A model generated the notes under the pieces. It did not search any database, was not told the DNA's origin, and saw only the letters and a program-made list of their open reading frames with translations. Position numbers and translations under genes: made by a program. A stretch of 64,000 nt of DNA from a virus (taxonomy: Duplodnaviria > Caudoviricetes): positions 32,001 through 96,000 of the IMG/VR virus record IMGVR_UViG_3300021399_000111; one strand, given 5' to 3'. Positions within the stretch are counted from its first letter, which is position 1; each line of letters starts with the position of its first letter. Positions 1-58,867 of the stretch are shown piece after piece.

Positions 1-3000
1 TTCTTTTGTTATGGATTCCCATTAGATAACAGTCATCTTCCTAGTAAAGACATTTACATTAAAAATATTTCTTTAAAATCTGTTGCGGCAATCGCTCAAG
101 ATGAAAATGGTTACATCTTAACCTTAAATGCAACTGAAGGCTTATTTTTTAATGAAGGGTATAATCCAGTTAAAAAGATAACTCCTACTTTAAAAATCAA
201 TGGAAAAACTGTTGATTTTATGCATGGAAAAGATACAAAAGTATTCTGGTTTAAACAGAATAGTATGATTAACGCACAGAATGAAAGATATTTAAGTTAT
301 GCGGGGCCGGGTTGGGAGTGTTTAAATGAGTCTACGGGAGTAACAAACAACCCTGATGGTAGCGTTACATTAGATTGGGTTACAAATAATAGTACATTAA
401 TTGTTAATAAACAAGATATTTATGATACAATGATATATAAATGTATTATTATTTATGATGGAAAACAGGTTTCCGCAAATATAGAATTAACTAATACAAT
501 TAGTAATGCTTTTCTCGTATTAAATACAACTACTGGTTCTAAAAAATATGTACGAAATGCTGGTAAAGTAGAATTCGTTACAGATGTCTATTTTACTAAT
601 GACAGTTATACAAAAACTAGTGCTTATAAAAATAGATTTATTTATTATTGGGGAAGAAGAGATAAGAAAGGTAAATATATTGATGATAATAGTATTGTCA
701 ATGTTGATGATTATAATATAACTTCAAATGGCATTACAGCAGAATCATTAAATGAATGCGTATCTAAAAATGTTAGAGGTATCGTTCAGCCTTTATATGA
801 AAGTATTTTTTCAATTCCAGTTTCTTTAATAGATGAATCTAATACTTTCTATTGTACTGCACTTTATGTTGATGACAATAATAATCTTATTACTATTGGT
901 ACAAAAGAAATTATAATTACAACAACTGATTATGAAGGTTATCAATTAATTGTTGATAATGAAAATACTTTATATAAATATGATGTTGATGGTGATAGTC
1001 CTATGGGTGAAGCTTATGATGGCCCATCTACATCTAAGATCACTGCAACAAAACCATTAACATTTAGAGTTAATAAACCAGATGGAACTGAATTAACTGA
1101 TAGTGAATATTTGGCTTTACATTATGTTTGGAAAATTCCTAAAAATTCTTTATTTGTAGTTAGAGAGTATACAGATGAAGATGATGATTATAAATATGTA
1201 AGAGGAACTGATGGGCATGATGTAGGATTAAGTTATGGGATAGCTAGCCGCTTTTCACCGGCTGCCGCAGATAAAAAATTAACTTTGACTATTGATTTTA
1301 ATGGAACAACAATAGAAAAGCAAGTTAATATTATTTTTATGAAAGAAGGTGAAGGTGGAACTAATGGGACTGCGTATGCGGCGGTCCTTGTTTCGGGAGC
1401 TTCTATCGAGAGCGAGTGTAGTCCTTATTCTGATGATAAAAAATTAATTTATAAAATGTCAGAGGAAAAGGGAGGATATTTAATATATTTTTTTAATTAT
1501 TCTACAAACAGTTGGGATTTTGATAGTAGTAGCTATTATCCTATTTATCCTAGAGTATATCGAGATAGTGAATTATTAGATCCTAGTGCTTATAATATTG
1601 AGTATTCTATGTTTGATAGTTCAGAGAAATCTGGCACAGCAAATCCTTATTTTGAGATTCCTGAAGGGGAAAAAGGTGGAAATACTTCAGGTAAAGGAAT
1701 TGTAATACATAGTGAAAACCCTAATTATAATCCAGAAGAAGTTCCTTGTACTGTTTTACAGGCTAAAATAACGGTATATCCTGGTAATGCGGGTACACCG
1801 CGTGGCAATGATAGGCCTTTAGGATCTCCATTTATTATATACGCATATTATCCTATTGATATATTTTTTGTTTATGATTATATGAATAGGGATTTATTAC
1901 CAAAAATTAATAATGGGTTTAATCAAGTAATGTATGAATCAGATGGTACAAATCCTTCTTATTCTAGTTCTCAATTTACTTTTGATTTATGTTCGTTGAC
2001 CTCTTCAGAAGATGCTGGGACTATCGACTCTATATTGGACAATGAGAATACTTACTATACATTAACTGCAAATGGAGATACTATTGGAGGACATTTAAAA
2101 TTAAATGGTACTCCTACTGTTTTAGAGTCCGGTTCGACTATTGCTATGCAAGTTAAGCCAGATATGAAATATGATGATGGTAATGCTCATACTTATGTAA
2201 GTGCAGTAATTACTCAAAATAATACTAATTGGAATTCTAAAAAATTACAACAAAAACAAAATGAATTAGAAGATAAGCTTGATAAAATAGGTAATCAACT
2301 TAGCCAATTAGAAAATAGTAAAGAGGCATTACAAAGTTTTGCTAATGAATTTAATTTTAATAATTATATTAATGCATTAAAAGAATTACAAACATTTTTA
2401 AATGAAAAAGAAACAGGTATTATTAAATTAAAAAATATTCTTCAATATTGTGATGAAATTTTATCTTATATAAATATTCAAAAAGCTTTTAATAATCCTA
2501 ATATTGAATATGTATGTTATAGCACTATTGATGTTATAAATACATTAATGATTGATGTATATCAAGCGCAAAAACAGATTAATCATTTAGATAATAGTCC
2601 AGGATATACTCCTAGTGATTTAATTTCATTAAGTTCAGATGAAATACCTTGGGATTCTACTATTGAGGAAAATTATAAAAATAGCTTAGGCTTAAATTGT
2701 ATGATTACAATAAGGTCTGCAAAAGATGATATTAATAATAATATTTCCGCATATCAAAATATTTATGATTTATTATTAAATACTTCTAGTGAAACTATTG
2801 ATAGTTTTAATGGAATTATAAATGATATTACTTCTGCTTGCAGTTATATTACTGATGATAAATTACCTGAATATGTTGATTTAAAAAATAAAATTCTTAA
2901 ATATTTAGATGAATTTAAAAAGCATTCTTCTATTACAGAATTAATTAATATTTTAAATCAAATGTATTTTAATGTTTTAAGAGGTACTTTTGATTTAAGC

Positions 3001-5511
3001 GGGAGCTCTTTAAAATTATCTGCTGCAACGGAAAATTATTTTGAAAAAACAGAAAATAATTTGAAGATTCAAGGAAATTCGATTTCTGCTTTATATAATT
3101 ATGTTTATAATTGTAGACGTCGTTGGCAAAACGGACTTCCTATAGAATTGGCTAGATATGTTCGTTCAATTCCTATTTATTATAGTAGAATAGGCCTTGC
3201 TGAATTAGATGCATGGGATGGAAATAAAGTTGATATTGGTGATGACTATATATTAACGCCATGGATGGGTGCTGGTAAAACTGATACTGAAAATAAATTT
3301 ACTGGTATACTCATGGGAGCCGTTATGAAGAGGAGCGGCCGCCACATAGGTTTATTTGGTTATAGTAAAGAAATTCAAACTTTATTTTTAGATGCGGAAA
3401 AAGGTTCTGCAATCTTTGGAAAAGCGGGTAATGGACAACTTTATTTAGATCCAGATAAAGATCAATTAATGATATATAGTTCTAACTTTTGGAAAAATTA
3501 TACAACAGATGGCTATCCAAATGGCTATGATCCAACGAATGAAAATGGAGAAGGATTATGTATTAATTTTTCAGAACCTTATATTAGATATGGTAATGGG
3601 AAGTTTACTGTCGATAAAAATGGTAATGCACATATTGGCGGAAATGGTGATAGTGATGTAGGTGGATGGGATATCCATGATACATATTTAGCTTCCGCAA
3701 ATTATGAATCAAGTGGGCATACTGTTGGTATTAAATTAGATGCTTTAAATAATGCTATTATTTTTGGAGCTTCTGATGGTGTAATTTATTCTGGACAACA
3801 TGATTCTCTTGATAAAACGGAGCCTGGTTTTTATTTAAGTAATCAAGGAATTTCTATTGGGAAAGGCTTTCAAGTTGATGAAGGTGGAATTCTTCGTTTA
3901 GGAAATCCTACACAAGGAGGCTATTTTGAAGTTAATTCAAGAGAAAATGAACTTAGTTCTTTTGATCCATGGCAAAGTGATTTTATACATGTTGGATTTT
4001 TAGCTTATAATTCAAGTTCAGATCCTAGTTATACAAATTATCAAAAATTTGGTGCATATCTTCCTTCTGTTAGAAGATATTTAACACCCCAAATTGAAGA
4101 AGAAAGTTCTGGTACTTATGTTGATCCGGGAGGTCATACTCAATTACTCAAATGGAACTATTTAAGATGTATGCGAGATATTGTTGATACATGGCAAATT
4201 GGAACAGATACTTTGTTAGGAAGAATTTCTAAATTCTTATATAATAAAACATTAGGGGAATATACTATTTTTAGAGATTACCCAAAACCGCCTGTTCAAT
4301 TTGTACCAGGAGGATTTAATGACCATGAAGTATATGTTGGTATAGATGGAATTCGACTTGGTAAATATTTTGCAGTAAATAATGAAGGTAGTTTACAAGC
4401 AGTTGGTTCTTCTTTTAGTCATTGTGTAATAGATAATACTTATATTAAATATGCTTATATTGAAAATGCTTGTTTAAGCGGGACCGAAAATCCTATTGAA
4501 ATACATGATACTAAAATAAAAAATGCTGTTATAGAACAGGGTGATTTATATGGAACTCCTGAAGAGCCTATTGAAATCGCTTATGCTCATTTATATGGAG
4601 ATAATACTCCAGATGTAAGGAATCCTGAAGGACATCCTATTACGATTGACTATGTGCAACTTACAGACGCTAAGGTTGTCAATGATATGGATGTTGAGGG
4701 AGATTTAATTGTAGCTGAAGAAAAAGGTATTAGATATAAATATTCATTAGGAGGACACCCAGAACAATTTAAAACTCAAAGATTATTACTCCCACCAGAA
4801 ATGGGGCACGGAGTAATTGATTATAAAAGAAGGTATATTGATATAGGATTTTTCCCTGAGATTGGGGATACTTATTATGCTGATGTAAGAGGTAACCCAA
4901 GTGTTTGGGCAAGCCATGCTTTTTATTCAGGTATTAAAGAATATGATTATCCACAGGATTATGAAGGTGAAAAATTAGGAGAATGTCGTTATGCTACTTG
5001 GGGACTTTCTTTAACAGAAAATCATGTTTTTGAATATGCTGTTAATGGATATGATGAGGTGTGGACTGCAGGAGGTTCTGTTGATAGAGTTTTTGGGTAT
5101 CCTCATGTATATTTTAAAACAAATAATAAAGATGGTATTAATGCAGAAGTTTATGGTAATTTCCATGGAACTTTTACTCCAGATACAGATGTATCAGATA
5201 TAAGATATAAACAATTACATTCTGAGTGGATTAATCCTGAATTATCTAAAAAATTAATTTGCAGTATAAATCCAATAGCATTTATTTATACAAATGGAAC
5301 AAAAGGAAATCATAGAGGATTTTCAGCTCAACAAGTTAAAGCAGTATTAGATGAATTAGGTTTACCTGAACAGATTTATTATTATGATGAAAAAGAAGAT
5401 AAATATTATTTATCAAAAGATGAATTGATACCAGATCTTGTAAATTGTATACAAGATCTGTATAAACAAATAGAAGAGTTAAAGGAGAAAATTAATGAAC
5501 ACACAAATTGA
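1..5511 (+). CDS. Large tail/tail-fibre protein with C-terminal intramolecular chaperone (peptidase S74-like); 5'-truncated by window edge
   Basis: Frame is open from base 1 into the 220..5511 ORF. C-terminus has SDIRYK...GFSAQQV...LIPDLVNCIQDLYKQIEELK, the typical S74 chaperone pattern. Beta-rich G/D repeats; tail-module context. Confidence 0.8.
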   Translation, partial: FFCYGFPLDNSHLPSKDIYIKNISLKSVAAIAQDENGYILTLNATEGLFFNEGYNPVKKITPTLKINGKTVDFMHGKDTKVFWFKQNSMINAQNERYLSYAGPGWECLNESTGVTNNPDGSVTLDWVTNNSTLIVNKQDIYDTMIYKCIIIYDGKQVSANIELTNTISNAFLVLNTTTGSKKYVRNAGKVEFVTDVYFTNDSYTKTSAYKNRFIYYWGRRDKKGKYIDDNSIVNVDDYNITSNGITAESLNECVSKNVRGIVQPLYESIFSIPVSLIDESNTFYCTALYVDDNNNLITIGTKEIIITTTDYEGYQLIVDNENTLYKYDVDGDSPMGEAYDGPSTSKITATKPLTFRVNKPDGTELTDSEYLALHYVWKIPKNSLFVVREYTDEDDDYKYVRGTDGHDVGLSYGIASRFSPAAADKKLTLTIDFNGTTIEKQVNIIFMKEGEGGTNGTAYAAVLVSGASIESECSPYSDDKKLIYKMSEEKGGYLIYFFNYSTNSWDFDSSSYYPIYPRVYRDSELLDPSAYNIEYSMFDSSEKSGTANPYFEIPEGEKGGNTSGKGIVIHSENPNYNPEEVPCTVLQAKITVYPGNAGTPRGNDRPLGSPFIIYAYYPIDIFFVYDYMNRDLLPKINNGFNQVMYESDGTNPSYSSSQFTFDLCSLTSSEDAGTIDSILDNENTYYTLTANGDTIGGHLKLNGTPTVLESGSTIAMQVKPDMKYDDGNAHTYVSAVITQNNTNWNSKKLQQKQNELEDKLDKIGNQLSQLENSKEALQSFANEFNFNNYINALKELQTFLNEKETGIIKLKNILQYCDEILSYINIQKAFNNPNIEYVCYSTIDVINTLMIDVYQAQKQINHLDNSPGYTPSDLISLSSDEIPWDSTIEENYKNSLGLNCMITIRSAKDDINNNISAYQNIYDLLLNTSSETIDSFNGIINDITSACSYITDDKLPEYVDLKNKILKYLDEFKKHSSITELINILNQMYFNVLRGTFDLSGSSLKLSAATENYFEKTENNLKIQGNSISALYNYVYNCRRRWQNGLPIELARYVRSIPIYYSRIGLAELDAWDGNKVDIGDDYILTPWMGAGKTDTENKFTGILMGAVMKRSGRHIGLFGYSKEIQTLFLDAEKGSAIFGKAGNGQLYLDPDKDQLMIYSSNFWKNYTTDGYPNGYDPTNENGEGLCINFSEPYIRYGNGKFTVDKNGNAHIGGNGDSDVGGWDIHDTYLASANYESSGHTVGIKLDALNNAIIFGASDGVIYSGQHDSLDKTEPGFYLSNQGISIGKGFQVDEGGILRLGNPTQGGYFEVNSRENELSSFDPWQSDFIHVGFLAYNSSSDPSYTNYQKFGAYLPSVRRYLTPQIEEESSGTYVDPGGHTQLLKWNYLRCMRDIVDTWQIGTDTLLGRISKFLYNKTLGEYTIFRDYPKPPVQFVPGGFNDHEVYVGIDGIRLGKYFAVNNEGSLQAVGSSFSHCVIDNTYIKYAYIENACLSGTENPIEIHDTKIKNAVIEQGDLYGTPEEPIEIAYAHLYGDNTPDVRNPEGHPITIDYVQLTDAKVVNDMDVEGDLIVAEEKGIRYKYSLGGHPEQFKTQRLLLPPEMGHGVIDYKRRYIDIGFFPEIGDTYYADVRGNPSVWASHAFYSGIKEYDYPQDYEGEKLGECRYATWGLSLTENHVFEYAVNGYDEVWTAGGSVDRVFGYPHVYFKTNNKDGINAEVYGNFHGTFTPDTDVSDIRYKQLHSEWINPELSKKLICSINPIAFIYTNGTKGNHRGFSAQQVKAVLDELGLPEQIYYYDEKEDKYYLSKDELIPDLVNCIQDLYKQIEELKEKINEHTN

Positions 5512-42936: not shown

Positions 42937-43524
42937 CTAATTTGTACTTGTACCAAACCAATGTCCTTGTATTTTAATATAATTAGTTGCATATGAATGT
43001 TGAACACCATCAAAATAGACATAATTTAAAGGATTTGTATCAAATCCTTTTTCTTCTAAATAAGGTATAAGAATTGATTCTTTTTCGTTTGCCACTAACT
43101 CTATTACTTCTAACATTTTTTCAATATTTTCTTGTGAAACCTTATTTCTTAAAGACCATGTTGAAAATTGTCCTTTTTGACTTAATACTTTATATACTGT
43201 ATCAGGCCATTTATCTGATAATACTCTATTTAAAATTACTTCAACTACTGCCATTTGACCATCGATATCTTGATTTCCAGCTTCTCTAAATGTAATTCTT
43301 GCAATTAATTCTTTTTCTTCATCTGTTAATGAATTAATTAAATCAGTATAATCATTTAAAGAATAATTATCAAATCCATTTTGAATAGCTTCTTCATTTA
43401 AAGTATTTAAAAGAATTGCTACTCCACCTTCAGTAATTTCTTCTTGAGCTGCTGCAGTATCAAAATTAAATAAAAATATAATAGTTGCTAAGCAAAGAAA
43501 AATAATGATTTTAATTTTATTCAT
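42937..43524 (-). CDS. SleB/CwlJ-like cell wall hydrolase (Hydrolase_2) with signal peptide
   Basis: LIARITFREAG...GQMAVVEVILNRV...PDTVYKVLSQKGQFS...IQGHWF. Confidence 0.85.
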   Translation of the reverse strand: MNKIKIIIFLCLATIIFLFNFDTAAAQEEITEGGVAILLNTLNEEAIQNGFDNYSLNDYTDLINSLTDEEKELIARITFREAGNQDIDGQMAVVEVILNRVLSDKWPDTVYKVLSQKGQFSTWSLRNKVSQENIEKMLEVIELVANEKESILIPYLEEKGFDTNPLNYVYFDGVQHSYATNYIKIQGHWFGTSTN

Positions 43525-56213: not shown

Positions 56214-56489
56214 TTATTTCACAGGAACAATATTATCTGAATCTGAAGGAATAATATCTTCACCAATTTGTCCATTGGGACCGAATTCCTTAATTCTTAC
56301 AATAGTGTTCTTTCGCAATCCGCCAAAGGTATTGATAAAAACTCCTAATGCAGCTTTAGCATCTACTGCAGTTACACCACGCGCTTTTGATAATCTAATT
56401 GTTGTTTTAGTATGAACAGGATCTCCATATTTTGCTTCTTTTGTTGGATACCATTCAAATTCATAACTTCTAAAAATTTGATTAGCCAT
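56214..56489 (-). CDS. Hypothetical protein
   Basis: Start MANQI follows GGAGG. Confidence 0.6.
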   Translation of the reverse strand: MANQIFRSYEFEWYPTKEAKYGDPVHTKTTIRLSKARGVTAVDAKAALGVFINTFGGLRKNTIVRIKEFGPNGQIGEDIIPSDSDNIVPVK

Positions 56490-56511
56490 TATTAATATCT
56501 TCCTCCATTGA

Positions 56512-57285
56512 TTAATCAAAATATATTTCTTCAAAAGTGTCTAAGTCAAGAAGAGCGATACGATTAGATACAGCGGTACACATGTCTATACAAAACTTAT
56601 GTCCATCACAGTAACGAATAATTGTAGGTTTAGGATATGATGTATCATCTCCATATAACCAATTATGCGCTTTTTTTATATCTTCTTTTGTTTTAGGCGG
56701 TTGACCTTTATATCCGAATTCATATTCCAGAAATTGAACTGGAGTATGCCCATGAACTAAATAAATAGTATTAGGGTCTTCTTTTGTGAAAAAATCATCC
56801 TCTACCCAATTATCATAGAAATGACTTCTATCCCAAAGGGGGTCATGGGGACGGTGTGAAGCTATTAAAGAATGCCCGGCGTGTTCCAAAATTACAGTAT
56901 GAGATCCTTTAACAGAATAATATACTAATTGTTTAGGTAATTTAGAAATAATATTAATATAATGATCTTGAATAAATCTAGGGAATTTAAGTAATTGATT
57001 TACTGTTAAATTCTCACTATCATCAAAAATTTCCCAGCGGTTAGGCTTGCGTCTATGGTTTATTTCTTCCACCATCATATCTTCGTGATTACCACAAAGA
57101 AAGTGTACTCTAGGATCATCTATTAATACATTAAATAATTCTAAGCCATGCGGGCCTCGATCAACTGCATCACCAATAAAATAAAGTGTATCATCAGGCT
57201 GCAACCAATTTAAAACTTTTTTGCCTAATTCAAGTTGAGCATGCCAATCTGAACTTGCAAAAACTCTTCCCATAAAAAACACCAC
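56512..57285 (-). CDS. Metallophosphoesterase (phage Ser/Thr phosphatase-like)
   Basis: SDWH, GDAVDRG, GNHE, HAG and VHGHTP motifs. Confidence 0.9.
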   Translation of the reverse strand: MVFFMGRVFASSDWHAQLELGKKVLNWLQPDDTLYFIGDAVDRGPHGLELFNVLIDDPRVHFLCGNHEDMMVEEINHRRKPNRWEIFDDSENLTVNQLLKFPRFIQDHYINIISKLPKQLVYYSVKGSHTVILEHAGHSLIASHRPHDPLWDRSHFYDNWVEDDFFTKEDPNTIYLVHGHTPVQFLEYEFGYKGQPPKTKEDIKKAHNWLYGDDTSYPKPTIIRYCDGHKFCIDMCTAVSNRIALLDLDTFEEIYFD

Positions 57286-57335
57286 TTCCTTTCTTTTATA
57301 ATTAATTATATCATAATTTTTTTAAGATTTCAAAT

Positions 57336-57364
57336 TTGCGTTTTTTAAAAAATTATGATATAAT
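57336..57364 (+). promoter_or_regulatory. Sigma-A type promoter for fliD, divergent from promoter 57305-57333
   Basis: TTGCGT-17 bp-TATAAT with TG extension. Confidence 0.65.
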
Positions 57365-57413
57365 AAAATTAGACAGAAATGTATAATTTTTTTAGAGAGA
57401 AAATTATATATTA

Positions 57414-57454
57414 TGAGAAGAAGGATTTTCTCAATATTTTACAAGGAGGTAAAA
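57414..57454 (+). promoter_or_regulatory. Tandem CsrA-type GGA hairpins in fliD leader
   Basis: TGAGAAGAAGGATTTTCTCA and TTTTACAAGGAGGTAAAA (overlapping the SD), both with AAGGA at the hairpin apex. Confidence 0.65.
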
Positions 57455-57458
57455 AAGT

Positions 57459-58832
57459 ATGGGTATGAAATTAACAGGACTTGTTTCTGGAATGGATACT
57501 GATGCAGTTATTAAACAAATGACATTAGCATACACAGCAAAAAAAGATAAAGTCTGGAAAGCTAAAGAAACTTTAACTTATAAACAAGATGCTTGGAAAA
57601 ATCTTAATAAAGAAGTTTATGATATGTTTACAAAACTTTCTAAACTAAGATTAACTTCTACTTATCAAAGAAGTGAAGCCTCTTCATCAAATGAAAATAT
57701 TGTAACGGTTGCGGGAGATAAAATTCAAGGGCAGCATGATGTAACAGTGAAACAAATTGCTACTCAAACTTATCTTACTGGAAATATTGTTAATCAAAGT
57801 CAACCTATTAATGTTTCTGGTAATTTGACTGTTACAATAGGCGGGAAAGAAAAAGAATTAAATATTACTCCAGATATGTCAATGGAACAAGTTGCTAGAA
57901 AATTAACCGAAGCGGGAATTATTGCTAATTTTGATGAAAATAATGCAAGATTATTTTTAGCGTCAAAAACAACAGGAGCAAGTAGTGATTTTAATATAAG
58001 CGGAGATGCAAGCTTACTAGATGCCATAGGGCTAGGGTCTTCCGCAATAAAACAAGTTGGTAAAGATTCTATTATTAATGTAAATGGAGTGGATTTTGTA
58101 TCTTCTTCAAATAAATTTAATATTAATAATATGACAATTACCGCAAAATCATTAGGTTCTGCTACTGTTGGAATGAAAACAGATGAACATATTTTTGATA
58201 CTGTTAAATCTTTTATTAAAGATTATAATGCTTTAATTAAAAAAATTGATAGTTCTTATAATAACACTGCCGCAAAGGGATTATCTCCATTAACCGATGA
58301 AGAAAAAGATGCTTTAACAGATAAACAAATTGAAGAATGGGAAAGTAAATTAAAAGAGAGTGCTTTAAGCAAAGATGAAACTTTATCCTCTTTAAGTTCT
58401 TTGTTAAAAACTACAATGAGTTCTATTTCTGTTGATGGAATTAATTTAACTTCTATGGGTATTACTCTTGGAGGATATTTCACAACAGAGAAAGATGAAA
58501 GAGGCGTTTATAATATTGATGAAGATAAACTCCAAAAAATAATTGCAGAGAACCCTGATAAAGTAATAAATTTTGTTACTAAACTTGCGGGAACCTTATA
58601 TGATAAATTAAATACAAAGATGAAATCATCTTCTTTAAATAGCATTTATAGTATCTATAATGATAAGCAAATTAAAAATAATCTTGCAAATTATGATAAG
58701 AAAATTGCTGAATGGGAAGATAAGATTGTAAAAATGGAAGATAAGTGGTATAAGCAATTTGCAAGAATGGAAAGCGTATTAAGTAAAACGCAGAGCCAAG
58801 CAAATTATTTATCAAATTTCTTTGGAATATAA
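57459..58832 (+). CDS. fliD: Flagellar filament cap protein
   Basis: N-terminal LTGLVSGMDTDAVIKQM, VKQIAT, SNKFNINNMTI, FIKDYNALI, LTDEEK; C-terminal WYKQFARMESVLSKTQSQANYL. Confidence 0.93.
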   Translation: MGMKLTGLVSGMDTDAVIKQMTLAYTAKKDKVWKAKETLTYKQDAWKNLNKEVYDMFTKLSKLRLTSTYQRSEASSSNENIVTVAGDKIQGQHDVTVKQIATQTYLTGNIVNQSQPINVSGNLTVTIGGKEKELNITPDMSMEQVARKLTEAGIIANFDENNARLFLASKTTGASSDFNISGDASLLDAIGLGSSAIKQVGKDSIINVNGVDFVSSSNKFNINNMTITAKSLGSATVGMKTDEHIFDTVKSFIKDYNALIKKIDSSYNNTAAKGLSPLTDEEKDALTDKQIEEWESKLKESALSKDETLSSLSSLLKTTMSSISVDGINLTSMGITLGGYFTTEKDERGVYNIDEDKLQKIIAENPDKVINFVTKLAGTLYDKLNTKMKSSSLNSIYSIYNDKQIKNNLANYDKKIAEWEDKIVKMEDKWYKQFARMESVLSKTQSQANYLSNFFGI

Positions 58833-58867
58833 AAAAGGAGAAGGTTTTAAACCTTCCCCAATTTTTT
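58833..58867. terminator. Bidirectional terminator between fliD and the DUF2828 gene
   Basis: GGAGAAGGTT/AACCTTCCCC stem flanked by A- and T-runs. Confidence 0.75.

Follow-up and report, generated by a model that had tools for sequence, protein, structure and literature searches.

This locus raises the question of how a flagellar filament cap gene carried by a phage is controlled, and in particular whether the two GGA hairpins that precede it form an operator for the host protein CsrA. The phage record is 141,935 bp long with direct terminal repeats and comes from a gut or rumen source; the window analyzed here is the 64,000-nt stretch covering bases 32001-96000 of this IMG/VR record, with a G+C content of ~30%. 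The cap gene, fliD, is full-length and is the sole plus-strand gene within a long minus-strand block, with a promoter and a terminator of its own. Its neighbors are of phage type: an RNA ligase gene, a divergent gene for a 257-aa protein (56512-57285), and a convergent DUF2828/DUF7788 gene. A flagellin gene, fliC, lies 34 kb away, and both flagellar genes are intact. Neither csrA nor fliW was found in the phage genome by Pfam search. The features of the two flagellar loci are as follows.

57336-57364, plus strand: fliD promoter, sigma-A-type with an extended -10 (TTGCGT, 17-nt spacer, TG-n-TATAAT), read from the sequence
57378-57412, plus strand: H0, a 16-bp A/U hairpin near the predicted mRNA 5' end, from the MFE fold
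57414-57433, plus strand: H1, an 8-bp stem with an AGGA loop (GGA at 57423-57425), TGAGAAGA-AGGA-TTTTCTCA, from the sequence and the MFE fold
57437-57454, plus strand: H2, a 6-bp stem whose loop holds the SD (GGA at 57445-57447), TTTTAC-AAGGAG-GTAAAA, from the sequence and the MFE fold
57459-58832, plus strand: fliD, flagellar filament cap protein, 457 aa (Pfam FliD_N 2.7e-17, FliD_C 8.7e-29)
58837-58859, bidirectional: terminator-like hairpin closing the fliD cassette, from the terminator/promoter scan
22999-23811, minus strand: fliC, flagellin, 270 aa (Flagellin_N 7.7e-48)
23818-23832, minus strand: fliC H2 over the SD, TTTTC-AAGGA-GGAAA, from the sequence
23838-23855, minus strand: fliC H1, TGCCACA-AGGA-TGTGGTA, from the sequence and the fold

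The MFE fold of 57371-57470 consists exactly of H0, H1 and H2, and its energy is -19.9 kcal/mol compared with -9.7 +/- 2.2 in shuffles (z = -4.6), a difference mostly owed to H0. The 3' arm of H0 holds most of the AT-rich box ATATATTA, which occupies 57406-57413 and directly abuts H1. The H1 loop is a candidate upstream CsrA site (BS1), and H2, which presents the SD (AAGGAGG, 57443-57449), is a candidate BS2. Spacing between the two GGA motifs is 22 nt, and 14 nt separate the second from the ATG at 57459. H0 is not clearly conserved among relatives, and a shorter 5' hairpin occupies the same relative place in the fliC leader; both are possible 5' stabilizers. No complement to the H1 loop was seen by eye in the fliD leader, so a pseudoknot between the loop and downstream sequence is not supported, and an Rfam search over 57200-57600 gave no meaningful match. 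The reading we favor, with a probability of about 0.68, is that the fliD leader is a flagellin-type CsrA operator and that translation of the phage cap is under CsrA/FliW control.

The sigma-A promoter noted upstream of fliD in the sequence-only reading was confirmed. Its -35 element matches at 3/6 positions, for which reason the promoter scan did not list it, and an equivalent promoter (TTGCAT or TTGACA, 17 nt, TG-n-TATAAT) precedes fliD in two related contigs, L006 and L007. The same reading had also reported a match to a second promoter class, and here the outcome was mixed. Elsewhere in the phage genome there are three good copies of TTGGRYAA-N29-(tttc)ATATATAW, which have no sigma-A -10 upstream and are candidates for a second promoter class with a non-sigma-70 geometry:

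window 40858, minus strand: good second-class copy shortly before a gene
window 46842, minus strand: good second-class copy shortly before a gene
genome 114933 (beyond the window end), minus strand: good second-class copy shortly before a gene

A match is present before fliD (TTAGACAG-N29-ATATATTA, 57369-57413), but it is weak, a looser copy of the motif than these three. The octamer TTAGACAG lies 4 nt after the fliD sigma-A -10, similar octamers are likewise placed in L006, L007 and L011, and it may simply be a conserved transcript start. If fliD transcripts started just after ATATATTA, they would lose the 5' arm of H1.

The fliC leader was compared with that of fliD, and the claim that the two share one two-hairpin architecture was upheld: H1, H2, the 22-nt spacing and the 14 nt from the second GGA to the ATG all recur. 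The fliC leader starts with TTGACA, a 17-nt spacer and TATAAT, followed by the 5' hairpin and then by ATATATTA, the same 8-mer as in fliD, which stands 2 nt before fliC H1; its position just before the first hairpin is thus common to both genes, as had been described. With fliD H1 sequences as its sole input, a covariance model was run over both strands of the window (128 kb) with filters off; fliD ranked first with 28 bits and fliC H1 third with 18.0 bits, and the second match, at 43033-43059 (minus strand), showed sequence likeness only, with its pairs broken.

The SELEX consensus for CsrA is reportedly RUACARGGAUGU (Dubey 2005, a study cited in PMC8523840). Matches to it, counted by hand and carrying no validated scoring threshold, were 10/12 for fliD BS2 (UUACAAGGAGGU), 9/12 for fliD H1 (GAAGAAGGAUUU) and 10/12 for fliC H1 (CCACAAGGAUGU). 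The GGAUGU half is imperfect in fliD H1 (AGAAGGAUUU), which may be a low-affinity CsrA site. Since fliD H1 matches the consensus less well than fliC H1, a graded response is conceivable in which the cap would be translated before the filament protein.

The specificity of the leader was assessed over the 134 candidate genes called across the whole phage genome. In 7/134 genes, a hairpin (stem of at least 5 bp) with GGA in its loop lies 12-40 nt ahead of the SD, the SD lies in a hairpin loop (stem of at least 4 bp) in 25/134, and both features coincide in 4/134. When a stem of at least 6 bp and an AGGA tetraloop before the SD were required, fliC and fliD alone remained, and the ribosome-binding site CAAGGAGG is likewise found at only these two starts (2/134). 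Over both strands of the genome, GGA-loop hairpins (stem of at least 6 bp, loop of 4-6 nt) number 74 compared with 53 +/- 8 in Markov-random sequence, a mild enrichment; three of the 74 have AGGA tetraloops, two of them before fliC and fliD and the third antisense within a coding region. Shuffling of the fliD leader gave a hairpin of the H1 kind with at least 6 bp in 3.4% of trials and a 4-bp version in 14%. The sequence ATATATWA occurs within 90 nt upstream of 10/134 genes, which is only mildly unusual. H2 alone and ATATATTA alone are thus weak evidence; their combination with H1 is not, and argues against chance. An IMG/VR pattern scan for GAAAAGGATTTC...CAAGGAGG returned unrelated coding sequences only.

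To place the gene, relatives of the phage FliD were collected. The family comprises 27 cluster representatives of 452-463 aa with 44-86% identity, the closest being P0002 (86%) and P0003 (84%); outside it, FliD proteins of Lachnospiraceae/Clostridiales reach at most 40% identity and are mostly longer. A FastTree phylogeny of 92 sequences (every phage-clade row, 55 bacterial rows drawn at random and four special cases; midpoint-rooted) put 33 phage-clade rows on one side of a branch with 100% support, indicating that the phage FliD proteins form a monophyletic, diversified clade. Among cultured phage genomes, megablast of the locus found no match, and tblastn with FliD found only distant ones, namely two faecal 'Bacteriophage sp.' contigs without annotation (35% identity) and Listeria 'phage' contigs (26%). 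A scan of IMG/VR with the single FliD sequence also gave no match; the relatives came from an alignment-based scan.

Eight distinct leaders of the phage clade were compared (the window, L006, L007, L011, L012, L013, L014 and L016), the FliD proteins of the seven relatives having 49-57% identity; the set excludes the contigs of P0002 and P0003 and most of the 27-member clade. L006 is a 146-kb viral record syntenic with the window (RNA ligase, metallophosphatase, fliD, DUF2828/DUF7788), and in L016 and L013 fliD lies among DnaE, RecJ, UvrD and RecX genes. All eight leaders have a GGA-loop hairpin with its GGA 19-27 nt before that of the SD, and the SD in a hairpin loop, the weak cases being an H1 of 4-5 bp in L013 and L012 and an H2 of 3 bp in L011 and L007. 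The unbiased MAFFT alignment of the leaders kept as conserved blocks only A-GGA-U of the H1 loop, CAAGGAGG and the ATG. The H1 stems themselves differ (UGAGAAGA/UUUUCUCA; UAAGAAAA/UUUUCUUA; UAAAGAA/UUCUUUA; AACUAA/UUAGUU; UAUAAAGAAA/UUUCUUUAUA) and include G-U pairs; the loop is conserved rather than the arms. ACAAGGAGGU is kept in 7/8 phage fliD leaders; an ACA before the SD is not required for ribosome binding.

Whole-leader MAFFT alignments gave no consensus fold, with indels in the loops and the spacer, and covariation was instead counted on ungapped GGA-anchored alignments. Across 11 fliD leaders, 85% of H1 cells were paired compared with 65% after shuffling (0/500 shuffles as high) and 42-61% in slid controls; the covariation score was 0.575 versus 0.19, and 7/8 pairs had changed on both sides. 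When fliC leaders were added, 85% of H1 cells were paired versus 56% shuffled. For H2 the values were 77% versus 53%, with 6/6 pairs changed on both sides. These pair counts lean towards structure, as the hairpins were located by script or by eye by seeking GGA loops, and part of the apparent H1 pairing is shared ancestry, because the inner GAAA/UUUC pairs are kept in most fliD leaders. The comparison of leaders in related phages, which the sequence-only reading had proposed, thus came out in favor of its hairpins, and the pairing patterns indicate that compensatory substitutions keep both hairpins across phage fliD leaders.

The leaders of bacterial fliD genes are of another kind. In ~100/123 distinct leaders from outside the phage clade, the stop codon of the upstream gene, named flaG by its conserved C-terminal peptide, lies 10-19 nt before the fliD ATG without a separate leader, and the fliD SD at these junctions is TAGGAGG or TAAGGAGG. 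A CTCG-TGGA-TGAG hairpin at the end of bacterial flaG was considered and rejected: it is coding sequence, its GGA is not conserved, and the third base of the Val codon varies freely. Four exceptions, L098, L105, L036 and L008, combine a long flaG-fliD spacer with a true GGA hairpin, which is GAGAAA-CGGA-UUUCUC 21 nt before AUGGAGG in L098 and L105 (Acetatifactor MAGs) and GUAUCA-AGGA-UGAUAC in L036. The enlarged spacer of L036, L098 and L105 (2900-3000 in each) places its GGA-tetraloop hairpin about 21-27 nt before the SD. In the tree, these three group together as a small clade within the bacteria, apart from L008, and neither lineage is sister to the phage clade. GGA leaders were therefore gained at least three times, and this recurrence suggests selection for CsrA control whenever the tight flaG-fliD junction is lost.

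The closest counterparts of the phage leader were found before host flagellin genes. In five Lachnospiraceae genomes, most full-length flagellin genes have a sigma-D-like CGATAT -10 box (also CCGATAT); 4/7 full-length flagellin leaders have a clear GGA hairpin (e.g. GGUUGCA-AGGA-UGCAACC) and then an SD enclosed in a hairpin loop, and the ribosome-binding site CAAGGAGG is present in 7/7. The phage fliD and fliC genes carry TTGCGT/TTGACA, 17 nt and TATAAT in place of a sigma-D -10 of the CCGATAT type. By these comparisons, the phage fliD leader resembles host flagellin leaders, not host fliD junctions, and does not descend from the fliD context usual in bacteria. Because bacterial fliD is usually leaderless, the phage leader is best described as a flagellin-type putative CsrA operator attached to fliD. 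The five genomes hold the nearest bacterial fliD or fliC and are candidate hosts; csrA and fliW are present in 5/5, immediately upstream of flaG-fliD, in the order fliW-csrA-flaG-fliD, followed by the flagellins.

Protein-independent roles were weighed as the first alternative. H1 and H0 might protect the mRNA from 5' decay, or H1 might act as an upstream SD-like stabilizer or standby site, with H2 tuning ribosome access. An SD in a weak hairpin loop is indeed common in this phage (the 25 genes above), the leader folds well, mostly through H0, and AAGGA is partly SD-like. However, this explanation does not account for a conserved loop GGA and an ACA before the SD in combination with drifting stems, for the restriction of the design to two flagellar genes, or for the same design in host flagellin leaders, and we consider it improbable. 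Another RNA-binding protein, possibly phage-encoded, might read the GGA hairpins in place of host CsrA, and many phage ORFs without a Pfam match would be available for such a role, e.g. 56512-57285 and 56214-56534 beside fliD. This is less probable still, as the phage has no CsrA-like gene, the same design is seen in host flagellin leaders, for which CsrA is the known reader, and its restriction to flagellar genes is unlike a general phage regulator.

It is very unlikely that H1 is a DNA inverted repeat serving as a transcription-factor operator downstream of the promoter: the repeat GAAA-N4-TTTC does recur between promoter and gene in several relatives, but the arms are wholly changed in L016, L036, L008 and the fliC leaders while the GGA centre is invariant, which is the opposite of an operator, and the G-U pairs form only on the sense RNA strand. 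A functionless by-product of AT-rich sequence and strong ribosome-binding sites is just as hard to credit, for although short A/U stems and GGA-loop hairpins are frequent and shuffles yield the 4-bp version, 8/8 phage-clade leaders keep the design despite unalignable flanks, their changes are compensatory, the spacing is identical to that of fliC, and the design is confined to 2/134 genes.

The CsrA reading can also be compared with characterized systems. In the flaA leader of C. jejuni, stem-loops SL1 and SL2 carry ANGGA loops 21 nt apart that were footprinted with CsrA, and bridging by a CsrA dimer is optimal at ~18 nt between sites (PMC4894983). The phage spacing is within the bridgeable range (fliD and fliC, 22 nt each; related fliD leaders, 19-27 nt), and C. 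jejuni and the phage have in common a pair of neighboring stem-loops with ANGGA loops, of which the second covers the ribosome-binding site. C. jejuni is also the only system found in which a cap-gene transcript is a CsrA target: CsrA binds the flaG 5'UTR of flaG-fliD-fliS, with fliD mRNA enriched 5-7x (PMC4894983), and FliD belongs to the CsrA proteome regulon (PMC4892619). Compared with flaA, the flaG leader binds CsrA with lower affinity, as does fliD mRNA, itself a weak target (PMC4894983), and these graded affinities (flaA high, flaG low) parallel the better consensus match of phage fliC H1 over fliD H1. The differences are that C. jejuni is an epsilonproteobacterium, its CsrA site lies before flaG and not directly before fliD, and no phage is involved.

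Among Firmicutes, the B. subtilis hag leader has CsrA sites BS1 and BS2 and a Hag-FliW-CsrA partner switch (Yakhnin 2007 and Mukherjee 2011, cited in PMC8523840 and PMC6529632), and the C. difficile fliC leader has predicted sites BS1 TGACAAGGATGT and BS2 CTAAGGAGGG (PMC8523840). Like phage fliD, both have one GGA upstream and another overlapping the SD, at a distance of roughly 20-25 nt, in Firmicute hosts with fliW-csrA, and the predicted effect is a block of ribosome binding. In contrast, both are chromosomal flagellin leaders under sigma-D, whereas the phage leader precedes a phage-borne cap gene with a sigma-A-type promoter.

In Oscillibacter, a CsrA RIP-seq peak covers a CAAGGAUG stem-loop in a fliC 5'UTR (PMC13418256), an example from gut Clostridia of CsrA reading such an element in a flagellin leader. 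The phage FRphi encodes a flagellin, FliCP, together with TldR (PMC13418256, PMC10705468) and illustrates that a phage-encoded flagellin can remodel host flagella; there, however, host fliC is controlled by an RNA-guided transcription factor and no fliD is carried, the term fliD having 0 occurrences in PMC13418256. At the Lachnospiraceae flaG-fliD junction, the fliD gene is homologous (31-40% identity) and the host family is the same, but unlike the phage gene it is in most cases leaderless.

Through CsrA, flagellin translation is coupled to flagellar export at a conserved checkpoint, and in Firmicutes FliW neutralizes CsrA while flagellin is exported. We infer CsrA binding, repression and FliW relief at phage fliD from the anatomy, specificity, conservation and covariation of the leader and from the csrA and fliW genes of candidate hosts. 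A host CsrA dimer would contact two GGA motifs 22 nt apart, one in the H1 loop and the other, that of the SD, in the H2 loop, and bound CsrA would cover the ribosome-binding site and block FliD translation. FliW, freed upon flagellin export, would relieve this block. If relief is tied to export in this way, phage FliD, like FliC, would be made only with active host flagellar export. The phage would provide its own sigma-A-type promoter and leave translation to the host checkpoint, with a flagellin-like leader that is present in all sampled members of the phage fliD lineage. Synthesis of both phage filament proteins is thus probably coupled to the host flagellum-assembly checkpoint.

The view that fliC and fliD act together and are not relics is supported by their specific shared leader, the intactness of both genes, the diversified clade and their co-occurrence; these points argue for a joint function, and co-regulation of the two genes is plausible. 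Both genes are present in every related record or contig that could be checked for both (G006, G007 and L013). The description of the two genes as unlinked applies to this phage but not to its relatives: fliC and fliD are divergent and 3.3 and 6.1 kb apart in G006 (93% complete) and G007 (78% complete), respectively, and stand in tandem in L013 and apparently in L012, in the order fliC, terminator, GGA hairpin, SD, fliD. The 34-kb separation here is thus a derived state. The two-hairpin design is also found in the fliC leaders of G006, G007, L013 and L012. In L013 the tandem pair spans 2068-4356 with a flagellin of 272 aa, and DnaE and RecX genes flank the L013/L012 pair.

A flagellin of Lachnospiraceae bacterium NC2008 shares 75% identity with phage FliC, whereas phage FliD is ~35% identical to NC2008 FliD and reaches no more than 40% with any bacterial FliD found. 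Either the residence times of the two genes in phages are very different, or their evolutionary rates are.

What is new here is the placement of a known kind of CsrA-type flagellin leader on a phage-borne cap gene, as a candidate operator conserved over a diversified phage clade, absent from most bacterial fliD genes and separately gained in two bacterial lineages. This suggests that a phage can connect its auxiliary genes to a post-transcriptional checkpoint of the host as well as to host transcription, and supports the idea that phage flagellin and cap are a pair that rebuilds or regrows the host filament. Lachnospiraceae flagellins matter for motility and for host immune sensing, and a leader of 80-90 nt with a CsrA of roughly 75 aa would be a compact RNA-protein pair for the study of phage-driven flagellar remodeling in gut or rumen Lachnospiraceae. 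A wider scenario is tentative, and we hold it at less than even odds: one lineage of large Lachnospiraceae phages may have built a flagellin and cap module and given the cap gene a CsrA operator that bacterial fliD usually lacks. Both proteins might then be translated only at the FliW-CsrA export signal or, conversely, the two strongly transcribed leaders might titrate CsrA and de-repress host flagellin; either way, the assembly checkpoint would be hijacked.

Several minor observations concern the surroundings of these genes. No csrA was found in G006 or G007. In G010, a 66-kb IMG/VR record scored as complete, the locus L209 (G010:64565-64714) lies next to L177, and csrA stands ~240 nt upstream of a flagellin gene at the very end of the record; this stretch probably belongs to the host chromosome, included in a prophage call, and does not represent phage genes. 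Within fliD, a FliS Pfam match at 58521-58751 (plus strand, E 8.6e-5, below the cut-off) was rejected as a separate gene, as it lies inside the C-terminal helical part of FliD, and probably reflects coiled-coil similarity, not a fused chaperone. The divergent 257-aa gene has no Pfam match of its own, and its syntenic counterpart in L006 is the metallophosphatase. A near-consensus promoter for this gene (57305-57333, minus strand; TTGAAA-17-TG-n-TATAAT, 11/12 matches) stands back to back with the fliD promoter.
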